From Nitrososphaerota archaeon (lineage in GTDB: Archaea > Thermoproteota > Nitrososphaeria > Nitrososphaerales > Nitrosopumilaceae), in NCBI GenBank assembly GCA_028867755.1, contig JAGWFT010000001.1, forward strand, positions 996,727 through 1,060,726: a DNA stretch of 64,000 nt. The letters are read 5' to 3'. Within the stretch, counting starts at the first letter, position 1; every line of letters begins with the position of its first letter. Below are positions 2,472-19,130 of this stretch, in pieces. Made by a program: the position numbers and the translations under genes. The notes beneath the pieces are model-generated. The model saw only the letters and a list, made by a program, of their open reading frames with translations. It searched no databases and was not told where the DNA came from.

Positions 2472-3224
2472 ATGAATTTTTATGTAATGAGTGCACCACA
2501 AGTCAAAGTAAGAACAGGAGTGCCTGGTTTTGATTCTGTAATTTCTGGTGGATTTCGAAGGGGAAAGACCATTGTTCTATCAGGTCCTCCAGGTAGTGGG
2601 AAAACAACATTTGGAATGCAGTTTCTCTATTTTGGTGCAAAAGATTTTGACGAGCCGGGAATCTTTGTAACTCTTTCTCAGAGTCCAGATGAAATAAAAA
2701 ATGACTTCAAGTCGTTTGGATGGGATGTTCAAAAATTATTTGATGATGGAAAGATGATAATAATAGACGCGCGACCGTTTAAGATGGAAGACGGGTTTAT
2801 CGCACTAGATGAATCACTCTACAGGGGAGAGTCATTACCATTTATGCATCTCACTCAGTTGATACTAAGTAGCATAAAGCGAATAGGTGCAAAGAGATTG
2901 GTGATTGATTCTCTTACGGTGCTTGGCATGCAGTATACTAACAGCTTTTACACAAGGCGAGGACTGCAGGGAATGGTTCATACACTCGAAGACCAACAAT
3001 GTACCTCTCTATTGGTATCTGAAGAGAACAAGACAGACAAGACACCTTTTGAGTGGCACGTTGTGTCAGGTATTGTACTATTGCATCACGTAAGAAAAGA
3101 GGATACGATGGAAAGGGCAATTCAAGTGATTAAAATGCGTGGTACAAAGCACAGCGAGCAAATATTTCCAATTAAACTCACAGAATCAGGGTTGCAGATA
3201 ATTCATCCTAGGATAGTTCCCTAG
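2472..3224 (+). CDS. KaiC/RAD55-family RecA-fold ATPase (single domain)
   Basis: Walker A GPPGSGKT, Walker B RLVIDSL, C-terminal KMRG motif. Confidence 0.9.
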   Translation: MNFYVMSAPQVKVRTGVPGFDSVISGGFRRGKTIVLSGPPGSGKTTFGMQFLYFGAKDFDEPGIFVTLSQSPDEIKNDFKSFGWDVQKLFDDGKMIIIDARPFKMEDGFIALDESLYRGESLPFMHLTQLILSSIKRIGAKRLVIDSLTVLGMQYTNSFYTRRGLQGMVHTLEDQQCTSLLVSEENKTDKTPFEWHVVSGIVLLHHVRKEDTMERAIQVIKMRGTKHSEQIFPIKLTESGLQIIHPRIVP

Positions 3225-3226
3225 TT

Positions 3227-4081
3227 TTACAGATGTATGTTCTTAGATCCAGCCCAGATGGACTGGAATAGCATACGCATAGAGTAAATCATGGCTTCTG
3301 AGTCTGTCCATACTGCTGATATCTCTTGGTTTGATTGGCTCAAGTTCTTGATAAAGAAGACAAGCTCGCTATCATCCCTGACTATAAAACATAGGTTATC
3401 TCTCATGCTGTCAGGCATTTTTCTCACTTTGGATCTATCAATATCATCAAATATGTACATTGATTTATCCGATGTCAAGGCCAACAGCTTAAGATCAATC
3501 TGGGCTTTATCAAGTGGCTCAAAAAAGTCAGAATGATAGAACTTGAGAAAGTCTTTTTCTGAGCCCCACACAAAAAATTCTTTTTTGGCATTTGAGATCA
3601 TCTCTTTTATCTTGCTGTGAATCTGGTTTGTCCCTTGCAGCATCTGGAATTTGTTTTCTTTACTTTCAGAAGCGACATTAAATTCAGGAATGCTGTTCCA
3701 TAGGTCTACTATGTTTTTTTCTTGTTTTTCAAGTGTATTTACTCGCTCTTTTTCTGCATTTACCAAAACCCAAATTGCTTTGTTTAACGGCTCGGCAGAA
3801 AACTTGATTGGATGCTGGAATGTTGCAGAGACCAATCCTTTGTTTTGCAATGTTGTAAGCAGGTGGTATGTCTCTGTTCTGGGAAGTTTTAATGCTTTAC
3901 AAATATCTGGGGCTTTTTTTGAGCCATACTTGCCAAGAAATATGTAGACTTTGCATTGATTTGGCGTGAGCCCATACTTGGCAAGCTCATCTTTTAGCTT
4001 GTCAACTGATAACTTGTGTTCATATAATTTTGAATCTGAGACAGAGTCAAATATTGTGATTTGCGTCTCCTCATCTCTCAT
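3227..4081 (-). CDS. TrmB-family transcriptional regulator
   Basis: N-terminal wHTH (GLTPNQCKVY...LPRTETYHLL..LQNKGLV), coiled coil, C-terminal effector-binding domain. Confidence 0.88.
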   Translation of the reverse strand: MRDEETQITIFDSVSDSKLYEHKLSVDKLKDELAKYGLTPNQCKVYIFLGKYGSKKAPDICKALKLPRTETYHLLTTLQNKGLVSATFQHPIKFSAEPLNKAIWVLVNAEKERVNTLEKQEKNIVDLWNSIPEFNVASESKENKFQMLQGTNQIHSKIKEMISNAKKEFFVWGSEKDFLKFYHSDFFEPLDKAQIDLKLLALTSDKSMYIFDDIDRSKVRKMPDSMRDNLCFIVRDDSELVFFIKNLSQSNQEISAVWTDSEAMIYSMRMLFQSIWAGSKNIHL

Positions 4082-4234: not shown

Positions 4235-4777
4235 TTATATAATATTTATTTCATCTATTGGAACATCAAAGATCGATTTGAACGAGAATTTGGCTCTAGA
4301 CTGGGCTGTCTGCGTAAATGCAATCTCTGCAGGTAACTCGTGGGTTGTAAGAAAAACACATCCTAAGTCTTTTTTAAGGCCTCTGGCAACTAGGTCATCA
4401 ACTGCCTGTTTTATCTTGGTGGCTCGGTCTAACTCTGATTTTACCTGCTCTGCTGCTTTAAAGTATAATTCCAGTTCCCCTTTTAACCCGATTCCGTCAA
4501 ATATTGATATTGAATCAAGATTGTACCAGTTATTTTTTTGATCTTTTTTCTTGACGCTTTTTTTCTTTTTTGGGTCGTTTGTGACACCTTCTATTTTTTG
4601 TCGCATATCTTGCAATTCAGCTGAATTTGTAGAATCAGTTGCGCGAAGTTTTTCCCCGATTAATCCTGATAGCTCGCCTGATCGGTTCTTTAATTGCCCT
4701 ATGTTGCTATCTAGCATCTGCTGTAATTCGGTTATAGTTCTAAACGACTTGATTTTTTCTTGTGTCATCTGGCTCAA
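4235..4777 (-). CDS. Hypothetical coiled-coil protein
   Basis: 180-aa ORF overlapping upstream gene by 4 nt. Confidence 0.75.
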   Translation of the reverse strand: MSQMTQEKIKSFRTITELQQMLDSNIGQLKNRSGELSGLIGEKLRATDSTNSAELQDMRQKIEGVTNDPKKKKSVKKKDQKNNWYNLDSISIFDGIGLKGELELYFKAAEQVKSELDRATKIKQAVDDLVARGLKKDLGCVFLTTHELPAEIAFTQTAQSRAKFSFKSIFDVPIDEINII

Positions 4778-5265
4778 ACTTTTCCTATCTGGGCTGCTGA
4801 CGTATCCATTGTTATTGCATCATCTGAGCTTGAGCTTGGTATTCGTTTTAGCTTCTTGGCGCCTTCCTTTAAGAAAGATATCTTTTTGTTCTTTATTTCT
4901 CTGTCAGTTCTTGCCATGGAGATGATGGCAGGTATTGAATATTTCAGGACATTAGCAGTTTCGTCCAGTGTGAGATGATCAAACCTCTTTGTTTCAGACT
5001 TGTAGTTTGGTTTGATGATTAGTAAATCCAAGTTTGGAGTCAAGACAATGCGAAAGTCTTCTGGTAAGCTTAAAAGTTGTGGATGCAAGTCAACAGAAAA
5101 TGAAAGATATGAAGTAATTATTTTCAAAGAGTTGTACAAGTCGTCTATGATGTTTACTTTTTCCTTGTCTATTTCATATACCTGAACAGCTTCGTCTACT
5201 AGGTCCTCCATGGCCTTTACTGCTGCTGCTAAATTTTCATCACTTGCGTTTGCTTCTGAGGGCAT
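4774..5265 (-). CDS. Hypothetical protein
   Basis: 163-aa ORF; TATA-like TTTATATAAA about 20-30 nt upstream. Confidence 0.75.
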   Translation of the reverse strand: MPSEANASDENLAAAVKAMEDLVDEAVQVYEIDKEKVNIIDDLYNSLKIITSYLSFSVDLHPQLLSLPEDFRIVLTPNLDLLIIKPNYKSETKRFDHLTLDETANVLKYSIPAIISMARTDREIKNKKISFLKEGAKKLKRIPSSSSDDAITMDTSAAQIGKV

Positions 5266-5354: not shown

Positions 5355-7850
5355 TTACGTTACCCTTACCACGCCAATATACTGGGTCACAAAGAATGGC
5401 TCGCCCTTTTGGTCATATCCACTTAGAAACGCGTACATTCTATAGCGTCCAGGAGTAATGTCTCCGTTTGCGTTCTGTGAAGGAGTTAATGCTGGAGGGC
5501 TAAAACAAACAGATAGCGTAGAGCCAACAGTAAAAATCGAACTATCTGTTAGTTGTTCATGAGGGTTTCCGCCAAATCCACAGTTCACCGACCCATATGC
5601 CTGGCTCGCATCAATGGTTTCAAATGTCACTCTAGTATTGTCTGTAAGCCATGCAGCATTAGGCCCAGGGTTGTAAACGTAGACATTTCCGTCTTGGCCG
5701 TGCTGATAAGTATAGTATGCAGGAAATGGTGTATCTGGATGTGGAACTTGAAGCATTGAGTTTGACTGTCCTGTGATTGCCGAGTTGTCAATTTCTAGCT
5801 TCATTGGGAGCTGTCCATTATTGAGTTGACTGACAAAGGTCATCTGAAGCTGCAACCTCTGGTTTGCTGTGAGTGTAACCTGTGGTAATGCGATAGAGTA
5901 ATTGTATTGCCCCCATGTATTGCTTGGATTAGAATAGGCACCAAATGAATCTGCAAAATTCATTGCAAAGCTTGAGCTTGTTGCAAGGTTCCCATTAGAT
6001 ACCAGATTACCATTTTGATCTACTATGTTTATTACAAAATTGATCTTGTGTGCTGCTGTACCGTAGTTTGTTTTATACAAATCAGCTATCTGGTTTGTAG
6101 GTGATGTTGTCAAAGCAACACTGTTCCAGTGAATCAAGTCATCTAGATAACCTGTAAAATAATTTATGCCGCTTGAGCTGTCATCTCGACCTACAGACCA
6201 TTTACTAGAAGGGTGGGAGTTACAATTAGAACATGAAACCCCTCCATTGGTTGCCTTTTGAACTCCGTCTACATATAGTGTGCACGTATCTGTACTGCCA
6301 GCATATGATCTTACAGCAATGAAATGATGCCAATTGCCATCATTGTAGGCATTTGCAGTAGGAGTTTCACAACTTATGACAGGGCTTAGATTTGACTTGC
6401 CAGCATATCTGAATAATAATTTGCCTGCATTTGCGCCGTTATCCAGTCCTATCTCATAAAATGGCTGCGAATCACCATTAGAACCAATTCGAAATATTAC
6501 CTGTCTTGCAGACGAGCTGGTCTTAAACCACCCAGATGTGGAATCTGTAGAACCCATATCGTTAACGCCTCCTTTTATGCTGGCGTCCATGTATTGTGAG
6601 TTGGCACCGTTAAAAAAACACCCCCCAGAGCCATACTGTCCATTTGCAGAAGTACACGTTGGTTTAGCACTATTGCTACCCAAAGTAAGCGCGTGGCCTG
6701 CATCAACATTTCCTGTAGACTCGGCAGCAGTAGTTGCTAGCGGCCCATCCTCAAAATGATAAATCATCATGTTGTTGTTTGTGGGCAGTGTTGTTGCAAC
6801 TGGGCTGCTCAAGTATCGAAGCGTAGCATTCCATTTTCCTGCATTCATGTCAATTGTTATGGTGTCATTGTTGGTGTAGAAATTCTGCGTTCCAGCAGTA
6901 TCCATCTGGATTATTTTTCCTCTAGTGTCAGCTGCTACAGAATGCATTTCATATCCATTTAGGGCATCTGTAGTTTCCTGATGTAAAATTAATTGGCTGT
7001 CATCAACACTAACTGCAGAAAGTCCGCTTGTGGTAAGAGACGTTTGGCTCTGAGTAGCGCTTGGAACCTGGGAGATGTTGACAACCGAGAGAGCATAATT
7101 TCCTTGATGTGCGTTCTGAATAGTTGCGTTGAATTCCTCTGAAGATCCAATCTCACCTGACAAGGTGCATGTCCATTGGAAAAGTGCCGTTTCACCGTTT
7201 TGTATTGTTGTATAAGATGGCGGTGCGGCAGTTGGCGGACAACTGGGCGTTGCTCCACCTGAAATAAAATTCAACACAGGAGTAACATTTGTCATTATTG
7301 CATTATTTGACATGTTGTTTGTTACCGCTAAAATTACTGTTGTGCTAAATCCATCTGGGACAATATTTGGAGTTGTAAAAAGTTGTATGGATATGGGTGC
7401 AGAAGCTGCCGAGTTTATGGTAAACTGTTGTTCATTGCCTCTTGATGTTACCAGTTTGATATTGTATTGATTTGAAGGATTGACGTAAACAGGTATGTTT
7501 TGTCCTATGTTAGTTAGTGTACTGCTAGGCACTACAAGCGTGCTGCTTGGTGTATAGCTGTAAACCCAATCAGTCTTTGACATGTTTTGAACCCATATTT
7601 TTGTAAAGTTGATTGGAAGAGTGCCAGTGTTTGCAACAGTTATGTTAAGCTTAGAGCCTGAAACCTCGACGTTAGAAATCTGAAATTTCTCTTTATTGGT
7701 ATCTAATAACTGCTGATTTTTTCCCAACACTGATTGGTTGTATCCATTTAGAATATTCATGCTATAGGTAATGTAAGTTACTGTACTTGTGAGTGCAATT
7801 ATGGCAAACACGGCTCCTACCACAGTAGATAGCGCTCTTCGGGATTTCAT
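5355..7850 (-). CDS. Large type IV pilin-like adhesin with LamG/concanavalin A-like domain
   Basis: Class III signal MKSRRA|LSTVVGAVFAIIALT; LamG motifs WHHFIAV..LYVDG..VGR..FTGYLDDL..W..AL; many N-x-S/T sequons. Confidence 0.85.
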   Translation of the reverse strand: MKSRRALSTVVGAVFAIIALTSTVTYITYSMNILNGYNQSVLGKNQQLLDTNKEKFQISNVEVSGSKLNITVANTGTLPINFTKIWVQNMSKTDWVYSYTPSSTLVVPSSTLTNIGQNIPVYVNPSNQYNIKLVTSRGNEQQFTINSAASAPISIQLFTTPNIVPDGFSTTVILAVTNNMSNNAIMTNVTPVLNFISGGATPSCPPTAAPPSYTTIQNGETALFQWTCTLSGEIGSSEEFNATIQNAHQGNYALSVVNISQVPSATQSQTSLTTSGLSAVSVDDSQLILHQETTDALNGYEMHSVAADTRGKIIQMDTAGTQNFYTNNDTITIDMNAGKWNATLRYLSSPVATTLPTNNNMMIYHFEDGPLATTAAESTGNVDAGHALTLGSNSAKPTCTSANGQYGSGGCFFNGANSQYMDASIKGGVNDMGSTDSTSGWFKTSSSARQVIFRIGSNGDSQPFYEIGLDNGANAGKLLFRYAGKSNLSPVISCETPTANAYNDGNWHHFIAVRSYAGSTDTCTLYVDGVQKATNGGVSCSNCNSHPSSKWSVGRDDSSSGINYFTGYLDDLIHWNSVALTTSPTNQIADLYKTNYGTAAHKINFVINIVDQNGNLVSNGNLATSSSFAMNFADSFGAYSNPSNTWGQYNYSIALPQVTLTANQRLQLQMTFVSQLNNGQLPMKLEIDNSAITGQSNSMLQVPHPDTPFPAYYTYQHGQDGNVYVYNPGPNAAWLTDNTRVTFETIDASQAYGSVNCGFGGNPHEQLTDSSIFTVGSTLSVCFSPPALTPSQNANGDITPGRYRMYAFLSGYDQKGEPFFVTQYIGVVRVT

Positions 7851-8332
7851 GGTGGGGCTGCCTGCGTTGTAAGTGTGGTTCCTCTTTGAGTTGTAATGGT
7901 AATAGTGTCTGCACTCTTGCTCTTCCAGACTGCATTGGCAGAAAGTTTTGCTGATATGGTATACGATGCTTGCTGATTTATTGTGGCAGGCAAGGCTGTA
8001 GACATGGATAGGTAGCTGCTTATGGCCGTACTATTGACCTGCATACTAGTTATCTTTGCAGCTACTGTGCCAGTGTTTGTTAGCGTCACATTTATGATGT
8101 TTTTTGAGTTTGCTGAACCACAATTAGTACAAAATGCTACGTTTTCTATATTCAAATTTTCATTTATCTTGTTGGTCATATTTGATGAAGTGTTTATCAA
8201 TGAAGTTTCAAATGTCTTGAGATTTCCATTTGACCATGCAACTATTGAGCTGCCCAACACGGCAACACTTGTTAACAATATTGCTGTAGTGATAACACTA
8301 CTAAGACCCCTGTGAGCTCTAACAAACTTCAT
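7847..8332 (-). CDS. Type IV pilin-like protein (minor pilin)
   Basis: Class III signal MKFVRAHRG|LSSVITTAILLTSVAVLG; 4-nt overlap with the LamG pilin gene. Confidence 0.85.
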   Translation of the reverse strand: MKFVRAHRGLSSVITTAILLTSVAVLGSSIVAWSNGNLKTFETSLINTSSNMTNKINENLNIENVAFCTNCGSANSKNIINVTLTNTGTVAAKITSMQVNSTAISSYLSMSTALPATINQQASYTISAKLSANAVWKSKSADTITITTQRGTTLTTQAAPP

Positions 8333-8379: not shown

Positions 8380-8904
8380 CTAGATTGAATTTACACTCGC
8401 CTCACTTATGATCTCTTTTGGCAAAGGCTGGATTCCAGCCATTTGTTCTGCAATAATGTCATTTTCAATATCTGTTGTAACTGTCTCTTCTACAGGCTCT
8501 GGTATCTTGGAAGCTTCTTCTTGTTTTGTTTCTACTTGAGGTGCAGACGATATCTGTGATAGCTTGTAGGCAGGGCATGGAATTTGCACGCTCTTTGAGA
8601 CTACATAAATTAAAGGAAAGATTTCTTGATATATCGTATTTACAATTAATGGTATGTTTTTTTGATCAGGTTCAAGATGTTTTGATATCTCGATATCATC
8701 CCCGCAAAGAGAGGCAATACCTTCTACGGATAATTTTGTATTTGTAGGGTTTGAAAGCAAGGTAAATTTGTATTTTAATTTGATTCCAAACTCGTTGTTT
8801 TCTATCTCATCTACTGATACATCAATGTCATATTTGATGAAATCATCATGGAAATTTTTTAATTTGTTTACTGTAAACGCTGTTATCTCTATACTTGGAT
8901 GCAT
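8380..8904 (-). CDS. Hypothetical protein, possible SecB-like fold with acidic tail
   Basis: Beta-strand pattern followed by helix IYQEIFPLIYVVSKSVQIPCP; fold call is inference. Confidence 0.6.
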   Translation of the reverse strand: MHPSIEITAFTVNKLKNFHDDFIKYDIDVSVDEIENNEFGIKLKYKFTLLSNPTNTKLSVEGIASLCGDDIEISKHLEPDQKNIPLIVNTIYQEIFPLIYVVSKSVQIPCPAYKLSQISSAPQVETKQEEASKIPEPVEETVTTDIENDIIAEQMAGIQPLPKEIISEASVNSI

Positions 8905-8999
8905 TTGATCCGTATATTGAATAGATCCAGACTTAAGCCCCTGTCTGTAGCGCCATAATACATATCATACAATTAACGACTCTTCATAATACCAATTTT

Positions 9000-10010
9000 G
9001 TGAGTAATTTAGAAGAGGTCAGTCATAGGGTAAAAGAGACAAACGCTTCAAAAGTTGTAAATGAAAATTTCAATCTCAATATCACAATATCAAAACTAAA
9101 ACGAAATACGCACGCTCTTTCAAAAAACTATGATGTCAAAAAGTATCTAGACTCAAACAAATTTACTTTCTCGCCTGAAATATCAGAGCTTATTCCAAAA
9201 GACACTCCACCGTATATAGACAACGGTGAGATGTATGTAGAAAGAATTGCAAGAGCAATGGCATTTTTCAAACAATGTGCCCTAATTGGTCCTAGCGGTA
9301 CTGGAAAGACACACATTGTATATTTTGTGGCAGAGCTTGCTGGGCTACCCTTGTGGGAGATAAATTGTGGTCTGCAAACCTCAGTTTTTGATCTTTTTGG
9401 TAGATATGTAGGCCTTGGAAAAGAGAACTGGATAGATGGCCTTATCACACTGTGGTGCAGGCATGGCGGAATTTTGTACCTTGATGAGGCCAATATGATG
9501 AAACAAGATATTGCAACCAGGCTTAACCCTATCTTAGATCAGCGTGGGCACATGGTACTGACTGAAAAAGACAATGAAATCATACAACGTCACAATGATG
9601 CTTTTCTTATAATCAGCATGAATCCAGTGTCATCAGAATTTGCAGGAACAAAACCAATTAATGCTGCAATGAGGAGGCGCATGAGTGTCTGGCTGAACTT
9701 TGATTACATGAGTGTAGGAAATAAAATTGATGAGAAAGAAATTGATTTGCTAGAGAAAAAAACTGGCATTGATAGAAAAAATGCAGAAAGAATAATACGA
9801 ATTGGTGCAGAACTACGAGAACGATACAAAAGAGGCGAACTTCCGTATGGACCGTCTATTGGGGACCTGATAAACTGGGCAAAACTGGTATCAGATGGCA
9901 CAGCTTTGAAGAGTGCAGGAGAAGAAACTATAATTGCACTTACAAGCGATGATCCTGAAATTCAAGAGATTGTAAGAAAGATAGTTCACAAAAATGCCGA
10001 TAGCCTATGA
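9000..10010 (+). CDS. MoxR-type AAA+ ATPase (CbbQ/NirQ/NorQ/GpvN-like)
   Basis: Walker A GPSGTGKT, Walker B ILYLDEANM, AMRRR arginine finger region, C-terminal lid PSIGDLINW. Confidence 0.9.
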   Translation: MSNLEEVSHRVKETNASKVVNENFNLNITISKLKRNTHALSKNYDVKKYLDSNKFTFSPEISELIPKDTPPYIDNGEMYVERIARAMAFFKQCALIGPSGTGKTHIVYFVAELAGLPLWEINCGLQTSVFDLFGRYVGLGKENWIDGLITLWCRHGGILYLDEANMMKQDIATRLNPILDQRGHMVLTEKDNEIIQRHNDAFLIISMNPVSSEFAGTKPINAAMRRRMSVWLNFDYMSVGNKIDEKEIDLLEKKTGIDRKNAERIIRIGAELRERYKRGELPYGPSIGDLINWAKLVSDGTALKSAGEETIIALTSDDPEIQEIVRKIVHKNADSL

Positions 10011-11560
10011 GAAGCGAAGAGAATTTTTATGAGTATGTCTGCAGACTGTTTTATGACTTTTCTCACACAATGCCAGACGATGTTGGCCTAGTTCTTTCCA
10101 AAAAAACAGTTTATCCGCTTTTGGAGGTTGGCTCTAACCTTCATGTTGTTTTACCATTGCCAAGAATTATTGGGGATAAATACGCGTTTGAAGGAATGCT
10201 TTTTGAAAACACCATAGATGGAAAGAAAAGTCTTTGGATTCTTTTTTTGTTCACATTGTATCATCTAGCAGCACATGTAGCTATATCTGATTATCAAAAA
10301 TACAAGGAATGGCAAAAAGACAAGACTGAAGATGCAAGTTGGCTTGTAATTGACTTTATTGAGGATATTCGAGTGGCCCGATACATAGAACGTGCAGATG
10401 CAGAAATCTGGAAAAACATGTGTTTGGTTGAAAAACAGTTTGACGATTATCTTGAAAGAAGACGATCAAATAATGCTTGCAAGCAAACCCCATACGAAAT
10501 AGTAGAGGAAGAAAAGATTCGTAGCTATTTAAAGGCTAGAGCGGTAGATGGCAAGGCATCTAATGATCATGACACCATGGCAGATCTTCTATATCATAAT
10601 CGTAATTTACTCGATTTTTTCCCACGGCCTTATCATGAGCGTCATAAATCTACATGGTTGATAAAATTTGAAGATAAGGCCCCTGGGCTCTTATCATCTG
10701 AAATTTTTAATGTGCGGATAACAAAACTAGATGAATTGTGGCAAGAGCATGAATATTCAAAAAACAGGTTATACCAAAGATACAAAAAATATCTCAAGAA
10801 TCTCAAGTTTGATTCAATTGTGGTGCCAACAGGTGATTTACAAGAATACCACAAAATAAAATCAAGAATTTTGCCGCTCTTAAAAAAAATCCGTCAACAG
10901 TTACGGTTACTACCTAATTTGGTTGATTCTCCCAAAACTGATCAAATGGGCTATATTGATATGCAAATGGCAATTCAAGCAATATCATCACAAGGACAGA
11001 CAACTGAGATCTTTGAGCAAGATGAACAAAGAAGAACTGAGGAGGCATGGGTGATTTTAGTGGATAAAAGTGGCAGCATGAGATTGTTATTTGATAAAAT
11101 TCAAGAATTTGTTGTGTGCATGGCAGAATCTGCAAACGAGTTAACAGGGAAATATGATGAATGGGCTCTTTTTAGCTTTGACAATAGTTTTCAAATTCTA
11201 AAGGATTTCAAAGAAAAATACAATCAAGAAGTTCAAGCAAGGATAGGTTCTATAAAACATGGAGGTATGTCATTGTTGCCTGATGCGCTTGAATTATCAA
11301 GTATGATATTAGCAGATAATCCTAGAGAAAAAAAATATATTTTTGTCATAACAGATGGTAATCCTTCTGGATATGAGAAAATTCATGCTGCTTTCTCAAA
11401 GACTGTTAAAAAGATGGAAATTTCCGGAATAACCCTGATAGCAATAGGCGTGTCAAAAGGAACCACTCGTGCTTTTAGGAACAGTGCAAGAGGAAAAAAT
11501 CTTAATCAACTTGTGGCCAAATTCATTACTGCTTACAGAACTGCCTCTGCAGGTATGTAA
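10007..11560 (+). CDS. von Willebrand factor A domain protein (CbbO/NorD-like partner)
   Basis: C-terminal MIDAS VDKSGSM and VITDG; 4-nt overlap with AAA+ gene. Confidence 0.88.
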   Translation: MRSEENFYEYVCRLFYDFSHTMPDDVGLVLSKKTVYPLLEVGSNLHVVLPLPRIIGDKYAFEGMLFENTIDGKKSLWILFLFTLYHLAAHVAISDYQKYKEWQKDKTEDASWLVIDFIEDIRVARYIERADAEIWKNMCLVEKQFDDYLERRRSNNACKQTPYEIVEEEKIRSYLKARAVDGKASNDHDTMADLLYHNRNLLDFFPRPYHERHKSTWLIKFEDKAPGLLSSEIFNVRITKLDELWQEHEYSKNRLYQRYKKYLKNLKFDSIVVPTGDLQEYHKIKSRILPLLKKIRQQLRLLPNLVDSPKTDQMGYIDMQMAIQAISSQGQTTEIFEQDEQRRTEEAWVILVDKSGSMRLLFDKIQEFVVCMAESANELTGKYDEWALFSFDNSFQILKDFKEKYNQEVQARIGSIKHGGMSLLPDALELSSMILADNPREKKYIFVITDGNPSGYEKIHAAFSKTVKKMEISGITLIAIGVSKGTTRAFRNSARGKNLNQLVAKFITAYRTASAGM

Positions 11561-11593
11561 CCGTAAAAGACACACTAGATCAGATAAACTGTC

Positions 11594-11616: not shown

Positions 11617-12303
11617 ATGTTCATAAAAACAAAGAACAGAAAGGCAATCAGTGCCGTGCTTACTACGCTGATTATCTTGGTGGCATCAGTAGTTCTTGGA
11701 ACAGGTGTTGTATTATTTGGTACAAGCCTTTTCCAGACAAACGCCCAATCATCGGGTCTGGCCGCCCAAGGTACTCACGTGTGGGTAAATGCAACTACCG
11801 GAATGACTAAAACCTACGTGTGGGGTGCTGCAGAAATACGAAACAGTGGAGACAAGATATTGTCTGTAGACCAGATTAGTGTTCGTGGTACTCAAATACC
11901 ATTTGCAAACTGGTACTATGACAGTAATCCAAATGACGTCACTGCCGCAAACTTCCAGTCTCAGCTTAACTATACTGGAACTGCAACAACTGCAAATCAG
12001 GTCGGTGGTGTTGTAGCAGGTGAGATGCAATCTTATGGTGCTAAGCAAAACTGTCCTACCGCAAGTGCAACCTCATTCTACATCAATGAATTTGGTTCTG
12101 CGGCAAATCCAACAAATCCAACACTGTGCTTCACACAAGCAAGTGGCCCAATCTCACTGAAGCCAGGAGGCTCAGCAATTGTGTACTTCCAAGTTCCTAC
12201 CGGAGTCTTGAGTACAGTTGATGGAGGCTCTAGCAGCAGTGTTGCAATATATGCTGGTAGCGTAGGTGCACCACAATCGGTTACTGTACAAAGCCAATCC
12301 TAG
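11617..12303 (+). CDS. Type IV pilin, probable major pilin
   Basis: Class III signal MFIKTKNRKA|ISAVLTTLIILVASVVLGTGVVLFG; directly upstream of assembly ATPase. Confidence 0.88.
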   Translation: MFIKTKNRKAISAVLTTLIILVASVVLGTGVVLFGTSLFQTNAQSSGLAAQGTHVWVNATTGMTKTYVWGAAEIRNSGDKILSVDQISVRGTQIPFANWYYDSNPNDVTAANFQSQLNYTGTATTANQVGGVVAGEMQSYGAKQNCPTASATSFYINEFGSAANPTNPTLCFTQASGPISLKPGGSAIVYFQVPTGVLSTVDGGSSSSVAIYAGSVGAPQSVTVQSQS

Positions 12304-12355: not shown

Positions 12356-13900
12356 ATGAAAGAGAGATCAAACCAAACCAAAGAAATTGAAAGTTTTCTG
12401 ACAAGTCAAATTATTGATGGAAATCAAAGTCATATTCCTCCAGGATATGAGGTGGTTAAAAACTATCAATTGCAACCACCGTTTAGTTATGCCAATATTT
12501 TGTATAACCAAGAAAAATCTTCATATCTCTATTTTGTAGACGAGTCTAAACTAAATCAAGACGAAACGTTGATCTTTCAAAAATTGTATAGACTCATAGA
12601 AGAAAGCCTAGAGTCGCCAACAGAACTAAAAAGTAACCAAAATTTTGATGACCACTTGAGTATGATTCTAAAAGAAAATGAAAAAATGTTTTTGGGCCAA
12701 TCAAGTGCTAGCATGGAGAAGGTAAAGTACTATCTAAAGCGAGACATCAATGGCTTTGGTGTCATAGATCCTTTGATGCATGATATTGGCATAGAAGATA
12801 TTAGCTGTAGTGGAACTGAAAAACCTATTTTTATCTGGCATAGAAATTATGATAGCATTCCAACTAACATACGATACACATCTAATGATCTTCTAAACGC
12901 GTTTGTTTCAAGAATAGTTTTCAGGGCTGGAAAACACATAAGCTCGGCATTTCCAATCTCTGATCTTGCACTGCAAGGAAACCACAGAATCTCTGTTCTT
13001 TATCAAAAAGAGGTAACTCCAAAGGGAACAAGCTTTACAATAAGAAAATTCAAGGAAGACCCTTACACTGTTATTGATTTAATCAAGTTTGGTACAATGA
13101 GCCTCCCAGTTGCCGCCTATCTGTGGATGCTGGTGGAGTCAAAAATGTCATTTATAATAATAGGCGCCACAGGCAGCGGTAAGACAACCATACTTAATGC
13201 AATTACTGGTCTGGTTCATCCCGATTACAAAATTTTTTCAGTTGAAGATGTGGCTGAAATTAACATAAATCACGAAAACTGGTTTACTCTTGTTTCAAGA
13301 AGTGGTTTTGGCCTTGGAGGCGAAGGTGAAATTGGTTTGTATGACTTGATAAAAGCTGGTGTAAGACACAGGCCTGACTATATTGTAGTGGGTGAAATTA
13401 GAGGCTCTGAGGCTTATGTCATGTTTCAGGCCATGGCGACAGGTCACGGTGGTTTGTGCACTATGCATGCAGATAGTCTAGAATCTGCAATAAAGAGATT
13501 GCAACAAAAACCAATGGATATTCCTCCGTCATACATCTCATTGATGAACTGTGCTGTAGTGATTAAAAGAGTAAAAGAAAATTCAACAGGTCAGAGTAGC
13601 AGACGAGCTATAGTTGTATCAGAAATTATTTCTTCTGATTCATCACATGCTGCTTTTTCATGGAACCCAAAGACTGATTATTTTGATGATGACCTCAAGG
13701 AGAGTATCCTGTTTAAAAGAATGGTAGCGTCAACAGGGCGTGACATGAGGGAATTATTAAAAGAACACCAACAAAGAATCTCGATTCTAAAGTGGATGCT
13801 TGAAAATGACATTCGCAATTATAAAAAAGTAGCCGAAATAGTTGGGAAATACTATAGAGACCCAGAATCTTTGATGCAGAAAATGGAAGTAGGAGTTTAA
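12356..13900 (+). CDS. Type II/IV secretion system ATPase (FlaI/PilB/TadA family)
   Basis: Walker A GATGSGKT, RHRPDYIVVGEIRG, His box GHGGLCTMHA. Confidence 0.95.
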   Translation: MKERSNQTKEIESFLTSQIIDGNQSHIPPGYEVVKNYQLQPPFSYANILYNQEKSSYLYFVDESKLNQDETLIFQKLYRLIEESLESPTELKSNQNFDDHLSMILKENEKMFLGQSSASMEKVKYYLKRDINGFGVIDPLMHDIGIEDISCSGTEKPIFIWHRNYDSIPTNIRYTSNDLLNAFVSRIVFRAGKHISSAFPISDLALQGNHRISVLYQKEVTPKGTSFTIRKFKEDPYTVIDLIKFGTMSLPVAAYLWMLVESKMSFIIIGATGSGKTTILNAITGLVHPDYKIFSVEDVAEININHENWFTLVSRSGFGLGGEGEIGLYDLIKAGVRHRPDYIVVGEIRGSEAYVMFQAMATGHGGLCTMHADSLESAIKRLQQKPMDIPPSYISLMNCAVVIKRVKENSTGQSSRRAIVVSEIISSDSSHAAFSWNPKTDYFDDDLKESILFKRMVASTGRDMRELLKEHQQRISILKWMLENDIRNYKKVAEIVGKYYRDPESLMQKMEVGV

Positions 13901-15367
13901 TTGATTTTGCTTTCTTTAAAAAAACTTGACCAGGGGGATTATGAAAAGAAACAAAACAAAAAGATAGAAAGAGAACTACCATATTTCATAACACTTGTAT
14001 CCTTGCTTGCATCAAGCGGGCTGGGGCCGTATACTATTTTACAAAAGATAAAAGAAATCAATCTTTTGCCAATAATTCATGGAGAAACCATAAAGATCCT
14101 CAAACGTATTGATATGCTTGGAATAGATCCTCTCACTGCACTAAATCAGACAAAAGACAAGCCGTCCTCTAGAGCTCTCGGAGAATTTCTTGGAGGTTAT
14201 GTGTCTGCTATTCAAAGTGGTGGAAATGTAATCAATTACCTAAAAAGCAAAATGTCAAGCTCATATGATAGACTTGAGAATACAGAAAAACAGTCAGTAG
14301 AGAAACTAAGCGGTACTGTGCATGGCTGGCTAACGATGCAGATTGTTGTCTTGTCCGTGTTTATTCTAGTTGCGGCCATTGGTTCAAATCCACTAAGTTC
14401 TAACGGCGCAAGTCACCCAGAACCACCATATGCACTTTTGATTTTTTCACCTATAATTTCAATCGCATTTATGAAAATGGTTCAAAAAATGAATTATTCA
14501 AACATTCCAGAAATCGCGATAAAAAAGATATTAAAATCTACTTTGCCTCCCTTTCTTGTAGGACTAGTACTGATTGCAAGCAACCTGCTTTCAGACTTGA
14601 ATGCTAATGCTTACATTTTGGGTGGTTCCTTGGTGATTGGTTCTTTATGGCTAGCAATTAAATTCAAAAAAATTTATGTTGCAAATCTACATGCAGAAGC
14701 TGCAACGCCACAAATTCTCCGAGATATCACAGAGGCAAGAAAATCTGGTATGGGACCTGAAAAATGTATCATACATGCTTGCAAGAGAAAAGATTTCAGA
14801 TCATTTAACATTGTTGCAAATACCATAGCAAACAAGCTTGAATGGGGTATTCCATTATCTAACATTTTTGAAACACTTCATAAAGAAGTCAAGAATTTCC
14901 AAGTATTAATTACTTTTAGAATATTGTTTGAAATCATCTCTTCTGGTGGGGGTAATGTCAATACACTTGATTCATTAGCTGATGCTAGTGAAAAGATCCA
15001 CGACATTTCAAAAACCAAGCGTGATATGCTTCAGCCATACGTGATAGTTGGTTTTATGGTAATTGTAATTACTGGATTTACCACTCTGTTAACAATAGAC
15101 TCTTTTGCAGACATTGATAAAGAAAAAAATCTAGTCCACAACGATAATGCACAAACATCTAGCATGCCAAATTCCTTACTTGATGTTGTTTCTATTGCTG
15201 TAATTGTACAAGCATGGTTAGCTGGACTTTTCATCGGAAAAATAACAAAGGGTGCCTATTCTGGAGGGTTCATGTATTCGATGCTACTTACTATAATTAG
15301 CATGGTTGCTATAGGAATGATCCAACTCCATGTGATAAACATAGGCTCTATTCTCCAACCATCCTAA
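13901..15367 (+). CDS. Type II secretion system F family platform protein (FlaJ/PilC/TadC-like)
   Basis: Two T2SS-F repeats (IERELPYFITLV..., ATPQILRDITEARKSG) with multiple TM; adjacent to ATPase. Confidence 0.9.
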   Translation: MILLSLKKLDQGDYEKKQNKKIERELPYFITLVSLLASSGLGPYTILQKIKEINLLPIIHGETIKILKRIDMLGIDPLTALNQTKDKPSSRALGEFLGGYVSAIQSGGNVINYLKSKMSSSYDRLENTEKQSVEKLSGTVHGWLTMQIVVLSVFILVAAIGSNPLSSNGASHPEPPYALLIFSPIISIAFMKMVQKMNYSNIPEIAIKKILKSTLPPFLVGLVLIASNLLSDLNANAYILGGSLVIGSLWLAIKFKKIYVANLHAEAATPQILRDITEARKSGMGPEKCIIHACKRKDFRSFNIVANTIANKLEWGIPLSNIFETLHKEVKNFQVLITFRILFEIISSGGGNVNTLDSLADASEKIHDISKTKRDMLQPYVIVGFMVIVITGFTTLLTIDSFADIDKEKNLVHNDNAQTSSMPNSLLDVVSIAVIVQAWLAGLFIGKITKGAYSGGFMYSMLLTIISMVAIGMIQLHVINIGSILQPS

Positions 15368-15410: not shown

Positions 15411-18107
15411 TTGAAGATACATATGAATAATTTGAGATACATAGCAGTAGCCTCGCTAATTGTTTTGGCAATTCTTCCACATTATGTATTTGCTGACAAT
15501 GGTAACCAGCTTGATACTACACTAATACCAAATAAAATAATTGCAAACACTGATGGTATAATTCAGGTCTACCCAAAAAGTTTTGGTAGCACAATTAGCA
15601 GTATGGTAGCTACATCATCTGATTCTTCAATAGTGCGGATTCTAGATGTAGGAAAAGATGTCTCTCATGATATTTTTAATGTAAAGATTAAGGCATTGAA
15701 CTCAGGTCAGGCAACAATTAACATGGCAGCATCAGGTTTTGCCTCTCTAGAGTTGCCAGTTACCATCTATCCAGATTCTAAAGGAGCCACGAATCTTTTA
15801 ATCAAAGCAACTCCGAAAACTTTTTCAACGTCAGGACCAAATACTGGTTATATTTCTGTAGAAACCGTCAACGCTGATGGGGTTCCGACTCCTGCATCTG
15901 TTGATACTCCAATAAAACTAAGTGTATCAGATAGTAGCATTGCAGGACTGGCCGATGATCAAATGATGATAAAACAAGGTTCATACTTTGCCATGGAAAA
16001 ATTTGCCATAGCAAAGCCTGGCAGTGTTCAAATATATGCATCTGCACCTTCAATGCAGCCTGTATCAGCATCAGTCACGATTAATAATGAGGCTGTACCG
16101 TACACACTCCAAGTTTACGCATATCCGCCAATAGTTAATGTCAATAAAGATGCAGTGTCGTATGTAATAGTCCAATTACATGACTCTGCAGGAAATCCAG
16201 TTATAGCAAAAAATGATATTCATGTATCAGTTAGTGTCGTAAATCCTGTAGACACAACATCAGTTAACACAAGCGGTCAAAGTCCATCTGTGCAGGTAAA
16301 CGATGGTTTTGTTATACAAAAGGGCTCTTACTGGGGATATGTTCCTGTTGAATTTACTGCTGGTGTGAATGCAACGTATAATGTAAATATTTCAGCTAAA
16401 GGTTACGTAATTAGTACAATTCCTGCTAGTACAACAGTTACAACTAGTACTACAGCTACTACTGGCACAACAGTGCCTGGTGGTGGAACATCTACTAGTG
16501 GTACAACAACTACCACTAGTACGACATCTACTAGTGGTACAACAACTACCACTAGTACGACATCTACTAGTGGTACAACAACCAGCGGTACGACAACTGC
16601 AACTGGTACAACAACTGCAAGTAGCACATTGGCCTCAATTTGTACATCAAATCCAATTTCAACCTCAGAGTCACAAGTACAAATTGCTGCTGTCGCACAA
16701 AATTTTGTTATGGATGACAAGACACCATGCTTTTACCCTCTTCCAATTCTTACAACAGGCAACACAGAGTTAATTGGAGTTTTAGCTTTGAAAGACTCAT
16801 CAGGTTATCCAGTGCTTGCAAAATCAGATCTATCATTTAGAATGGATTCGTCTGATGTGTCTACAGTTTCTGTACCAGGCGTGGAAATGGGGTATGGGTC
16901 TCAATCTGCCCTTGTCTTTGCTCAAATTGGCAATGCTGCCAATCCAGTAACACTAAATGTTGTTTCAGACAGTCCTCAGCAGGTAATGCCAGTCATGGCA
17001 TCTCCCTCTCAGGTGACATCAGGTTTGGTGGCTGATTCATTACTTCCAACTGTTTTGCCAAATACGCAATTCCCACTGGCGATTTACGCTACAAATAATG
17101 GCGCTCTCGGCACATTTAAGAACGATTTTACTGCCTTGATCTCTCCACAAGAAACAATCTCGCCTATACAATTGACCGTTACAAAAGGTGATCCGATATT
17201 TCTTACCGACGAAACATTGCTTGAAGGCGGCCCCCAAAATATTGCAATCACAACACCAGATTACTCATCCAATTTCATTGTGACAGGGGCATCATCAAAA
17301 CCAAATGGTATTGTACTTGGTTATCCAGATCAAATTTTTTCAAATAGTAATTTATTGTTTTCAATCGAGTTGTTGGATGATAAACAACTCCCAATACTGG
17401 CTGACAAAGATACTGATATCAAACTAGTTTCAAGTGATCCGTCTGTACTTGATGTGCCAGATAATGTGCAGATAAAGAAAGGTACCTATTATGCAACACT
17501 TGATGCTCACTCCAATTCGTCTGGCACTGCAGAGATTGCAGTACTTGCAGATGAAATACCTCTATCAAAATTTGATGTGCCAGTTACAAGCTATGCACCA
17601 GTAATAAGCATCGACTCGGCTGATCACGCGGACAATAATTCTCCACTTACAGCCACTGTGACAGCTACCTACAATCAATTACCTCTTGCAGGTCTTAATG
17701 TGGATTGGTCGGTAACAGGTGCAACAACAAAGAACGCCGATACCATTACAGACAAAGAAGGTAAAGCAACCATCTCGTTAATCACAAACGATCCTAGTAC
17801 AGTTAGTATAGAGGCAGGCGTTGGAGGAGGACCATATCAAACTGTTACAGTCGATAAGCAAGTCAGTATCAATCCGCCATTGCAGCCTCTCATCTCAACA
17901 GGCCAATCTGGGCAATCTAATTCACAGTCATCTGGTTTTACAGTAATGGGTGTTAGTCCTCTTTTGTTTATTATTCCAGGTGCAGCAGCTGCTGCATTTG
18001 TAGTTTTAAAAAAGAAACAAATGCTAGATGGAATTACCGAAAAAATCAACATTACAGATAGATTTTCAGAAATAAAAGAAAGAATGATGGACTCTGGCCA
18101 ACGATAA
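15411..18107 (+). CDS. Large secreted, C-terminally anchored surface protein with repeated Ig-like domains and T/S-rich linker
   Basis: Sec-type signal peptide, four internal repeats, Thr-rich block, C-terminal TM followed by KKK. Confidence 0.8.
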   Translation: MKIHMNNLRYIAVASLIVLAILPHYVFADNGNQLDTTLIPNKIIANTDGIIQVYPKSFGSTISSMVATSSDSSIVRILDVGKDVSHDIFNVKIKALNSGQATINMAASGFASLELPVTIYPDSKGATNLLIKATPKTFSTSGPNTGYISVETVNADGVPTPASVDTPIKLSVSDSSIAGLADDQMMIKQGSYFAMEKFAIAKPGSVQIYASAPSMQPVSASVTINNEAVPYTLQVYAYPPIVNVNKDAVSYVIVQLHDSAGNPVIAKNDIHVSVSVVNPVDTTSVNTSGQSPSVQVNDGFVIQKGSYWGYVPVEFTAGVNATYNVNISAKGYVISTIPASTTVTTSTTATTGTTVPGGGTSTSGTTTTTSTTSTSGTTTTTSTTSTSGTTTSGTTTATGTTTASSTLASICTSNPISTSESQVQIAAVAQNFVMDDKTPCFYPLPILTTGNTELIGVLALKDSSGYPVLAKSDLSFRMDSSDVSTVSVPGVEMGYGSQSALVFAQIGNAANPVTLNVVSDSPQQVMPVMASPSQVTSGLVADSLLPTVLPNTQFPLAIYATNNGALGTFKNDFTALISPQETISPIQLTVTKGDPIFLTDETLLEGGPQNIAITTPDYSSNFIVTGASSKPNGIVLGYPDQIFSNSNLLFSIELLDDKQLPILADKDTDIKLVSSDPSVLDVPDNVQIKKGTYYATLDAHSNSSGTAEIAVLADEIPLSKFDVPVTSYAPVISIDSADHADNNSPLTATVTATYNQLPLAGLNVDWSVTGATTKNADTITDKEGKATISLITNDPSTVSIEAGVGGGPYQTVTVDKQVSINPPLQPLISTGQSGQSNSQSSGFTVMGVSPLLFIIPGAAAAAFVVLKKKQMLDGITEKINITDRFSEIKERMMDSGQR
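16488..16582 (+). repeat. 36-bp perfect tandem repeat x2.6 (ACATCTACTAGTGGTACAACAACTACCACTAGTACG)
   Basis: Copies at 16488-16523, 16524-16559, partial 16560-16582; in frame, encodes TSTSGTTTTTST. Confidence 0.95.
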
Positions 18108-18431: not shown

Positions 18432-19130
18432 ATGTTAATTGAAAATTTGGATCTTAACACTGTGAGAATTATCACAGCTTTGGGTATGCTTGGAATTGCA
18501 TCTTTTTTAGACATACGAAAAAGGGAGATAAATGATATTGTATGGATTGGATTTGGAGCCATTGCGTGTGTATTTGTCTTTTTCAGTGATAATTTCTGGT
18601 TGACAATCAAGACATTAGGTTTGTCGATGATAATAGTTCCTATCGCGCTTTTCATATGGCGTCTTGGTATTTTTGGGGGGGCTGATGCTTTTTGTCTTAT
18701 AGTTCTTGGCGCCTTGGTCCCCATGGCATCAATACAAAGCTCTGAGATAACTCCATTTACAACACTCACTAATGCTGCAATAATCTCTATTGTTCCGCTA
18801 TTTGTAAATCTCAGTCGAAATCTAGTTGCCATGGCAAAAAGAGAAGATATCTTTAATGGCATAGATGAGACAAGATTAACTAAACTTGTGGCACTTTTTG
18901 TTGGTCATAGGGCAAAGAACACAAAATATGGATTTTCAATGGAAAGGATTGAAGGAAACCAAAAAAGGCTTGATTTTGGATTTAGGCATGCAGAAAAGAC
19001 ACAGTTTTGTAATGCATCCACGACATGGATTACCCCTGCAATACCGTATATCCTTTACATATCTGGCGGATTTGCGATTCAGATAATTTATGGTGATGTT
19101 ATCGTCAATTTGATTAAAAGTATCCACTGA
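18432..19130 (+). CDS. Prepilin peptidase (A24 family, FlaK/PibD-like)
   Basis: Catalytic Asp motifs FLDIRKREI and FGGADAF; C-terminal PAIPYI. Confidence 0.9.
   Translation: MLIENLDLNTVRIITALGMLGIASFLDIRKREINDIVWIGFGAIACVFVFFSDNFWLTIKTLGLSMIIVPIALFIWRLGIFGGADAFCLIVLGALVPMASIQSSEITPFTTLTNAAIISIVPLFVNLSRNLVAMAKREDIFNGIDETRLTKLVALFVGHRAKNTKYGFSMERIEGNQKRLDFGFRHAEKTQFCNASTTWITPAIPYILYISGGFAIQIIYGDVIVNLIKSIH

Follow-up and report, generated by a model that had tools for sequence, protein, structure and literature searches.

A CbbQ/NorQ-type AAA+ ATPase and a NorD-like vWA adaptor are genomically tied to one clade of archaeal type IV pili

MoxR–vWA gene pairs, in which a MoxR-class AAA+ ATPase is encoded together with a protein carrying a von Willebrand factor A (vWA) domain, are widespread, and to our knowledge few of their clients are known: Rubisco, nitric oxide (NO) reductase, the cobalt and magnesium chelatases and fumarate reductase. 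What, then, does such a pair do inside an archaeal pilus locus? The question is raised by a stretch of 64,000 nucleotides (the window) from a Nitrososphaerota archaeon (GenBank assembly GCA_028867755.1, contig JAGWFT010000001.1, positions 996,727 to 1,060,726 of the forward strand), whose genome belongs to the genus Nitrosotalea, measures 1.64 Mb and is 99.95% complete. An earlier note, made from the sequence alone, had picked out the pair at positions 9000–11560 of the window and put it forward as a candidate pilus-remodelling module. Here we report that the tie of the pair to the pilus system is real and consists of genomic and phyletic coupling in two archaeal classes. We propose, with about as much confidence as doubt, that the pair is a NorQ/NorD-type remodelling machine, a dedicated accessory of one archaeal pilus clade (the subclade 4A type), with two small uncharacterised proteins (h163 and h180) and a TrmB-family regulator as likely partners; we refer to the five genes as the cassette. 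We infer that the two proteins form a complex, as well as which client they act on and to what effect.

A CbbQ/NorQ-type ATPase and its adaptor

The pair consists of two genes:

9000..10010, + strand: AAA+ ATPase, MoxR class, CbbQ/NorQ/GvpN group, arCOG00441-type; GTG start, 336 aa
10007..11560, + strand: NorD-like vWA adaptor, arCOG02900-type; ATG start, 517 aa; N-domain at residues 1–300, low-confidence linker or finger candidate at 304–342, C-terminal vWA/MIDAS domain at 346–515

The earlier note had described a CbbQ/NorQ-like AAA+ ATPase and a vWA protein with a metal-ion-dependent adhesion site (MIDAS) that overlap by 4 nt and lie upstream of, and co-oriented with, pilus genes; open reading frames (ORFs), Pfam matches and motifs all agree with that description. 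The overlap reads ATGA, the start codon of the vWA gene occupying 10007–10009 and the AAA+ stop codon 10008–10010.

The ATPase matched Pfam AAA_5 (E 4e-19, 69.4 bits against a curated cut-off of 22) and the CbbQ_C lid domain (E 3.5e-15, 56.4 bits against 20.6), and a phmmer search of the PDB returned NorQ at 4e-23 and CbbQ at 5e-23, each across one module. Alignment of 11 orthologues from several families, 57–84% identical, left Walker A (GPSGTGKT), Walker B (LYLDEANM), sensor-1 N208 and R225–R227 unchanged; stretches at about 131–147 and 179–198 were likewise invariant and match, judging from sequence only, the positions expected for the helix-2 insert and the pre-sensor-1 hairpin. The GvpN equivalog (NCBIfam TIGR02640) was not reached, the protein scoring 46 bits against a cut-off of 266.8. 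A closer kinship with midasin was considered and rejected: the midasin match at E 3e-51 is artefactual because it adds up nine partial matches that fall on six tandem AAA modules, and the best single midasin module gave just 49.5 bits as against 85 bits for NorQ. On these matches and motifs, the protein is a CbbQ/NorQ-type MoxR ATPase with intact catalytic motifs. It differs from NorQ in an N-terminal extension of about 70–90 residues. It shares with CbbQ/CbbO the ATPase family (PDB 5c3c and 6l1q, about 5e-23) and the two-gene arrangement, but its neighbours are pilus genes and its host lacks the CbbQ/CbbO client: the earlier note had remarked that the window has no Rubisco gene, and a RuBisCO large subunit was not found even in the genome as a whole.

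The same genome encodes a second MoxR-type AAA+ protein (265 aa, 32% identical to the first) on contig C35 (70518–72763), with its own vWA gene downstream; this second pair adjoins a geranylgeranyl-reductase-like gene and has no pilus linkage.

Residues 349–498 of the adaptor matched Pfam VWA (E 4e-11, above the curated cut-off). Among 26 adaptor orthologues, 23–58% identical, the MIDAS residues D353-x-S355-x-S357, D426 and D450 were invariant in all 26, and a serine or threonine was kept at GG(M/L)S/T. Invariant positions also occur ahead of the vWA domain (G315, Q324 and F336) and near the C terminus (F506), and in the helical N-domain H86, H90, E119 and D120 are invariant or nearly so. As read from these alignments, the catalytic and MIDAS residues of the pair are intact and under purifying selection.

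An AlphaFold model of the adaptor had a predicted local distance difference test score (pLDDT) of 81.8, with low values at residues 304–342. Its top Foldseek match was the NorD VWA domain from NorQD complexes (E 9e-11), and a VIA alignment of model residues 283–515 with the NorD VWA domain, a span that takes in the segment before the vWA domain, gave Z 20.2. The MIDAS domains of midasin (human MDN1 and Rea1) followed at Z 20.2 and 19.7, placing the midasin fold among the top matches, whereas generic vWA domains reached at most 16.8 and ArnB, at rank 22, 15.3. A profile built from the adaptor alignment and searched against PDB sequences likewise found NorD (1.2e-9). Both sequence and fold matches were confined to the vWA part, vWA domains having filled the fold-match lists. 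In the model, therefore, the adaptor fold groups with the NorD and midasin MIDAS domains and resembles ArnB no more than it does ordinary vWA domains; an ArnB-like adaptor was rejected, its Z of 15.3 lying within the generic vWA range.

NorQ/NorD, which inserts non-haem iron into cNOR, serves as the mechanistic template (PDB 9qhd and 9qh6; Kahle et al. 2026, PMC13036017): a finger of NorD inserts into the AAA+ ring's pore, and the same finger-in-pore logic has been proposed as common to NorQD and midasin/Rea1. Like that system, the pair combines a CbbQ_C-type ATPase with an adaptor in which a linker joins an N-domain to a C-terminal MIDAS vWA domain; unlike NorD (about 640 aa), the adaptor has 517 residues, an N-domain without detected similarity and a pilus-locus context. 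The segment 304–342 would fit the pore-inserting finger of NorD, because the NorD alignment begins at residue 283 and invariant residues fall inside the segment.

Coupling of the pair to one pilus clade

The pair stands inside a pilus locus whose other genes, in the order of the window, are these:

2472..3224, + strand: KaiC-like ATPase, single-domain, at the locus edge; Pfam KaiC E 1.5e-59
3227..4081, − strand: TrmB-family transcription regulator; Pfam TrmB and Regulator_TrmB; cassette member in every lineage examined
4235..4777, − strand: h180, uncharacterised, 180 aa; coiled coil, Lys-rich stretch, invariant GELELYF motif
4774..5265, − strand: h163, uncharacterised cytoplasmic protein, 163 aa; travels with the pair
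5355..7850, − strand: pilin-like protein, 831 aa, weak LamG-like match; the conserved part is the pilin-like N-terminal third
7847..8332, − strand: pilin-like, probable minor pilin, 161 aa; class III signal-like N terminus, weak UpsA match; syntenic
8380..8904, − strand: h174, 174 aa, arCOG05517-type; SecB-like core (1–112) and variable acidic disordered tail
11617..12303, + strand: putative major pilin of 228 aa; N-terminal class III signal peptide, weak UpsA match (NCBIfam)
12356..13900, + strand: type IV pilus assembly ATPase, T2SSE/FlaI-like; Pfam T2SSE E 8e-37
13901..15367, + strand: platform protein, TadC/T2SSF-type; Pfam T2SSF, NCBIfam UpsF/BasF matches under their cut-offs
15411..18107, + strand: surface protein, 898 aa, Thr-rich, C-terminal anchor; Pfam Big_1; conserved position in related loci
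18432..19130, + strand: prepilin peptidase, FlaK/PibD-like; NCBIfam FlaK_Arch E 2e-19, below cut-off; syntenic in relatives

To survey synteny, 15 proteins encoded in the window were compared by tblastn with about 100 related loci. The conserved block has two divergent arms, one running KaiC, TrmB, h180, h163, minor pilins and h174, the other AAA+, vWA, pilin, ATPase, platform, surface protein and peptidase, and it is kept in Nitrosotalea, Nitrosopumilus, Nitrosarchaeum, Nitrosotenuis and Nitrosomirales, that is, across family- and order-level divergence. In the Nitrosopumilus and Nitrosarchaeum loci with the gene order of the window, the AAA+ protein is about 70% identical. A set of marine loci (L113–L126; Nitrosopumilus and Nitrosomaritimum) has the h174–AAA+ segment inverted about the divergent promoter, such that AAA+ joins the minor-pilin arm and h174 the vWA–pilin–ATPase arm; the ATPase and adaptor genes thereby come to lie on opposite strands, the content of the locus being otherwise whole.

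This genomic association has been known since 2016, and the word 'undescribed' in the earlier note has to be withdrawn. Makarova, Koonin and Albers (2016, Front Microbiol 7:667; PMC4858521) reported a strong linkage of the arCOG00441/arCOG02900 pair to pilus loci of thaumarchaeal subclade 4A. For Nitrosopumilus koreensis AR1 and Nitrosopumilus AR2, their supplement gives an order that begins with the uncharacterised arCOG05517 gene and continues, in divergent orientation, with ATPase, vWA, pilin, FlaI-like ATPase and TadC. Because that order is identical to the one in the window, and nothing essential differs, we regard the pair as the Nitrosotalea instance of the published association; the likeness is one of gene order and domains. 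Those authors grouped the vWA protein with ArnB, in the same arCOG, and proposed a regulatory role (an 'alternative regulatory pathway' by analogy with ArnA/ArnB), noting that ArnAB genes themselves never occur in pilus loci. Where that study has the ArnB grouping, we find an adaptor that is NorD/midasin-MIDAS-like and define a wider cassette and a SecB-like neighbour. Beyond Makarova et al. 2016, our literature search found no functional study of the pair.

Presence and absence within a single genus point the same way. Adaptor genes occur in 17 of the 34 Nitrosotalea genomes, and the orthologous pilus ATPase (at least 72% identity, or high-identity fragments) in those 17 and in one more, the 75%-complete G011; five genomes with a completeness of 93–99% have neither. 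These tallies take in five unpublished genomes (G010, G011, G017, G026 and G032), without which the count is 15 with both genes, 14 with neither and none discordant. In the genome of the window, a whole-genome search found the pilus ATPase as a single copy. Conserved synteny, and the fact that the pair and the orthologous pilus ATPase tend to occur or to be missing together, uphold the earlier note's claim that the pair is functionally tied to the pilus locus.

Outside the class, relatives of the AAA+ protein about 63% identical to it occur in metagenome-assembled genomes of Bathyarchaeia and Thermoprotei. A hidden Markov model scan recovered the cassette, in the order AAA–vWA–h180–h163–TrmB, in 22 of 24 Bathyarchaeia and Thermoprotei loci. 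Pilus genes directly follow TrmB in seven of the 24, and the other loci had none within 8–10 kb on either side; likewise, in a set of 61 genomes of that group, only about 8 of about 34 adaptor genes have a T2SSE gene within 12 kb. Over all 61 genomes, 33 carry both the cassette and a member of one pilus-ATPase clade, 3 the cassette only, 1 the ATPase only and 24 neither. In genomes where the two are unlinked, the ATPase is 72–73% identical to the cassette-linked orthologue of relatives; in one such genome (G068) it lies about 486 kb away. We take this co-occurrence as supportive and not as statistical proof, because the counts ignore kinship. Across lineages, the genes held tightest to the pair are h163, h180 and TrmB, not the pilus motor.

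These results divide one expectation of the earlier note, that the pair and pilus genes keep company and that no other conserved neighbour takes their place. For adjacency it fails on the Bathyarchaeia side, where the pair is commonly found without pilus genes beside it and where h163, h180 and TrmB stay with it; for genome-wide co-occurrence it holds, the pilus-ATPase clade still accompanying the pair.

One Bathyarchaeia-side locus (L131) has an additional gene between h163 and TrmB, at 14034–14504 on the − strand, for a small multi-pass membrane protein of 156 aa that has no Nitrosotalea counterpart. Gaps of about 700 bp at the same place in loci L142–L161 suggest a membrane-protein gene as in L131.

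The earlier note had also suggested that the pair might serve in retraction or disassembly, as a motor replacing the missing PilT. Archaea, as far as we know, are without PilT, and the pair sits inside the pilus locus. Nothing else that we found supports the idea, and we consider a PilT-like role scarcely credible: the pair is of the NorQ/NorD type, in which turnover is slow (about 13 ATP per minute per hexamer for NorQ alone and about 18 for the NorQD complex; PMC13036017), neither protein has an evident membrane segment (sequences read by eye, and a globular adaptor model), and the cassette persists hundreds of kilobases from pilus genes.

Companion genes of the cassette and of the pilus locus

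Two small proteins, h163 and h180, accompany the pair beyond Nitrososphaeria. In loci of Bathyarchaeia and of Thermoprotei, homologues of h163 adjoin the pair (hhalign 92% and 91%), and h180 matched its Bathyarchaeia neighbour at 98.8% (hhalign, E 6e-17). In the ESM Atlas, h180 matched archaeal hypothetical proteins only. Fused or longer forms of h180, sought as a Rosetta-stone clue, were not found, which is weak evidence. None of h174, h163 and h180 had a Pfam or NCBIfam match at permissive thresholds.

The third small protein, h174, could be approached through its model, which has a core of about 112 residues with pLDDT about 90. The best Foldseek matches were all SecB or SecB-like (1fx3, 1qyn and 1ozb among them; E 6e-5 to 1e-3), in keeping with the SecB fold of a four-stranded antiparallel sheet and a long helix, and VIA gave Z 9.3 to SecB-like Rv1957 and 8.8 to SecB over 110 residues at 3.0–3.3 Å, the next unrelated match scoring 5.7. 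At the level of sequence, no Pfam match appeared even at E 10, nor did the h174 profile match any PDB sequence at E 10. The modelled core of h174 thus has a SecB-like fold without sequence-level membership of SecB. An arcadin-1-like identity was rejected: although an arcadin-1 structure is deposited, no PDB sequence matched at E 10, and arcadin-1 appeared in neither fold list, SecB standing first in both.

The distribution of h174 follows the pilus genes. Nearly every pilus-linked locus has it as a conserved neighbour, and among the 24 Bathyarchaeia and Thermoprotei loci it was present in 7 of 8 that are pilus-linked as against 1 of 16 that are not, so that in Nitrososphaeria, Thermoprotei and Bathyarchaeia it goes with the loci that have pilus linkage. 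This pattern bears on a second explanation, namely that the pair, with the SecB-like h174, directly chaperones the pilus machine in assembly or quality control of the ATPase, the platform or the prepilins. Such a role would suit the position of the pair, which adjoins the pilin, ATPase and platform genes throughout Nitrososphaeria, and the precedent of NorQD and CbbQO, which act on assembled membrane or large complexes. We nevertheless think it unlikely, given that on the Bathyarchaeia side the pair is mostly far from pilus genes and never from h163, h180 and TrmB.

The KaiC-like gene at the edge of the locus stands beside TrmB throughout Nitrosopumilaceae (56–84% identity) and converges on the opposite-strand genes; its identification as ArlH was rejected at 21 bits against an NCBIfam cut-off of 215. 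In the surface protein gene, a long Thr/Ser-rich repeat with TTSTSGTTT units at about 16400–16720 yields a spurious antisense ORF of 105 aa.

Intergenic regions and a possible transcriptional switch

Two intergenic features bear on how the locus might be transcribed:

8905..8999, no strand assigned: divergent intergenic region of 95 bp between h174 and AAA+, read from sequence
11569..11587, + strand: conserved 19-nt element upstream of the pilin gene, with a consensus of about TACATACTAGATCAGATAA

The 95-bp region is presumed to be a bidirectional promoter region. The 56-nt spacer between the adaptor and pilin genes contains the second feature, which is unique within the window at up to one mismatch; from Nitrosotalea to Nitrosopumilus and Nitrosarchaeum, every copy of the pilin gene has it 25–45 nt ahead of its ATG. 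The pilin stop codon is followed by a T-rich run. Two loci, L066 and L097, carry a tandem duplication of the major pilin gene, with the element ahead of each copy. The element is likely a pilin promoter or operator and is a candidate operator for TrmB. Given this conserved upstream element and the T-run after the gene, the pilin probably has its own promoter or operator, and since the spacer holds a pilin-specific upstream element, co-orientation does not settle whether pair and pilin are co-transcribed.

The pilin-specific element also suits a third explanation, in which the pair acts at the level of transcription by remodelling or sequestering TrmB, directly or through h163 and h180, and thereby toggles the pilin and pilus operons. 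TrmB belongs to the cassette in all lineages examined and, in the pilus-linked Bathyarchaeia loci, lies directly upstream of and co-oriented with pilin genes; the unlinked cassette still co-occurs with the pilus-ATPase clade, as would fit a regulator acting in trans; and a regulatory role is what the 2016 study proposed (PMC4858521). The adaptor, however, groups with the NorD and midasin MIDAS domains, which belong to remodellers of protein complexes, and ArnB came no higher than rank 22. The comparison with ArnA/ArnB, which repress the Sulfolobus archaellum, is apt in that a vWA protein is tied to the control of a type IV filament, but it fails in that the adaptor fold matched ArnB only at Z 15.3 and a scan of locus proteins turned up no FHA-domain partner. 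We know of no MoxR–vWA pair that acts on a transcription factor. A transcriptional switch is possible, and we rather doubt it.

Weighing the proposed role

How might a NorQ/NorD-type machine of this kind work? By analogy with NorQD, the ATPase would form a hexamer, the adaptor finger (about 304–342, with G315, Q324 and F336) would enter the pore of the ring, and the hydrophobic C terminus of the adaptor (F506 and Y510) would dock onto the ring, leaving the MIDAS (D353, S355, S357 and D450) to grip an acidic residue of the client. ATP hydrolysis would then twist and stretch the adaptor and in this way remodel the client. The likeliest immediate partners would be the small cytoplasmic proteins h163 and h180, with TrmB; we favour these three because they are the sole genes beside the pair in every lineage examined. 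On this model, h174, whose occurrence follows that of the pilus genes, may keep hold of a component of the pilus or present its acidic tail to the pair. In sum, pilus production or assembly would come under ATP-dependent control, the pair not being the motor of the fibre.

Several observations weigh against this proposal. The genomes behind the co-occurrence counts are related, and the counts therefore lack phylogenetic independence. Other families of Nitrososphaeria carry related pilus ATPases (40–43% identity) without the pair, which is therefore not generally needed for archaeal pili. Neither h163 nor h180 showed a recognisable domain in family searches. The conserved H86, H90, E119 and D120 of the adaptor, to judge from the residues themselves, could handle metal, which would point to a metalloprotein client and not to h163 and h180.

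Taken further, this last point leads to an explanation in which the pair serves an unrelated client, for example by inserting metal into a respiratory or copper enzyme, or forms a vWA–MoxR conflict system, its pilus linkage being incidental. Its known relatives are indeed metal-insertion or activase systems. We think this very improbable in view of the linkage to, and co-occurrence with, one pilus clade in two archaeal classes, and the second MoxR–vWA pair on contig C35 is free to serve other clients. An anti-phage conflict system was rejected for want of meaningful PADLOC matches: the pair gave one match only, at P-loop level (BrxF, E 6e-4), and its neighbours gave weak ones only (TrmB to Csa3, E 1e-4; KaiC to mad8, E 4.6e-4).

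A dedicated NorQ/NorD-type accessory of the subclade 4A-type pilus thus remains our preferred account, and, apart from retraction, the mechanistic idea of the earlier note agrees with the published prediction. Tentatively, and with more doubt than confidence, we extend it: the five-gene cassette may be a new kind of MoxR–vWA system, whose client would be a complex of small proteins and a regulator and which would act as an ATP-driven switch gating pilus production, forming together with h174 a module of pilus proteostasis and regulation in Nitrososphaeria and Bathyarchaeia.

To the association known since 2016, the present analysis adds a NorD-like adaptor, a five-gene cassette, a SecB-like h174 and co-occurrence without linkage, as leads for experiment, and it narrows the candidate partners to h163, h180, TrmB and the SecB-like h174. 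If the proposal is true, the tie between a MoxR–vWA pair and a type IV filament would add a different kind of client for this family, and the pair could explain how surface attachment is controlled in abundant ammonia-oxidising archaea and in Bathyarchaeia.

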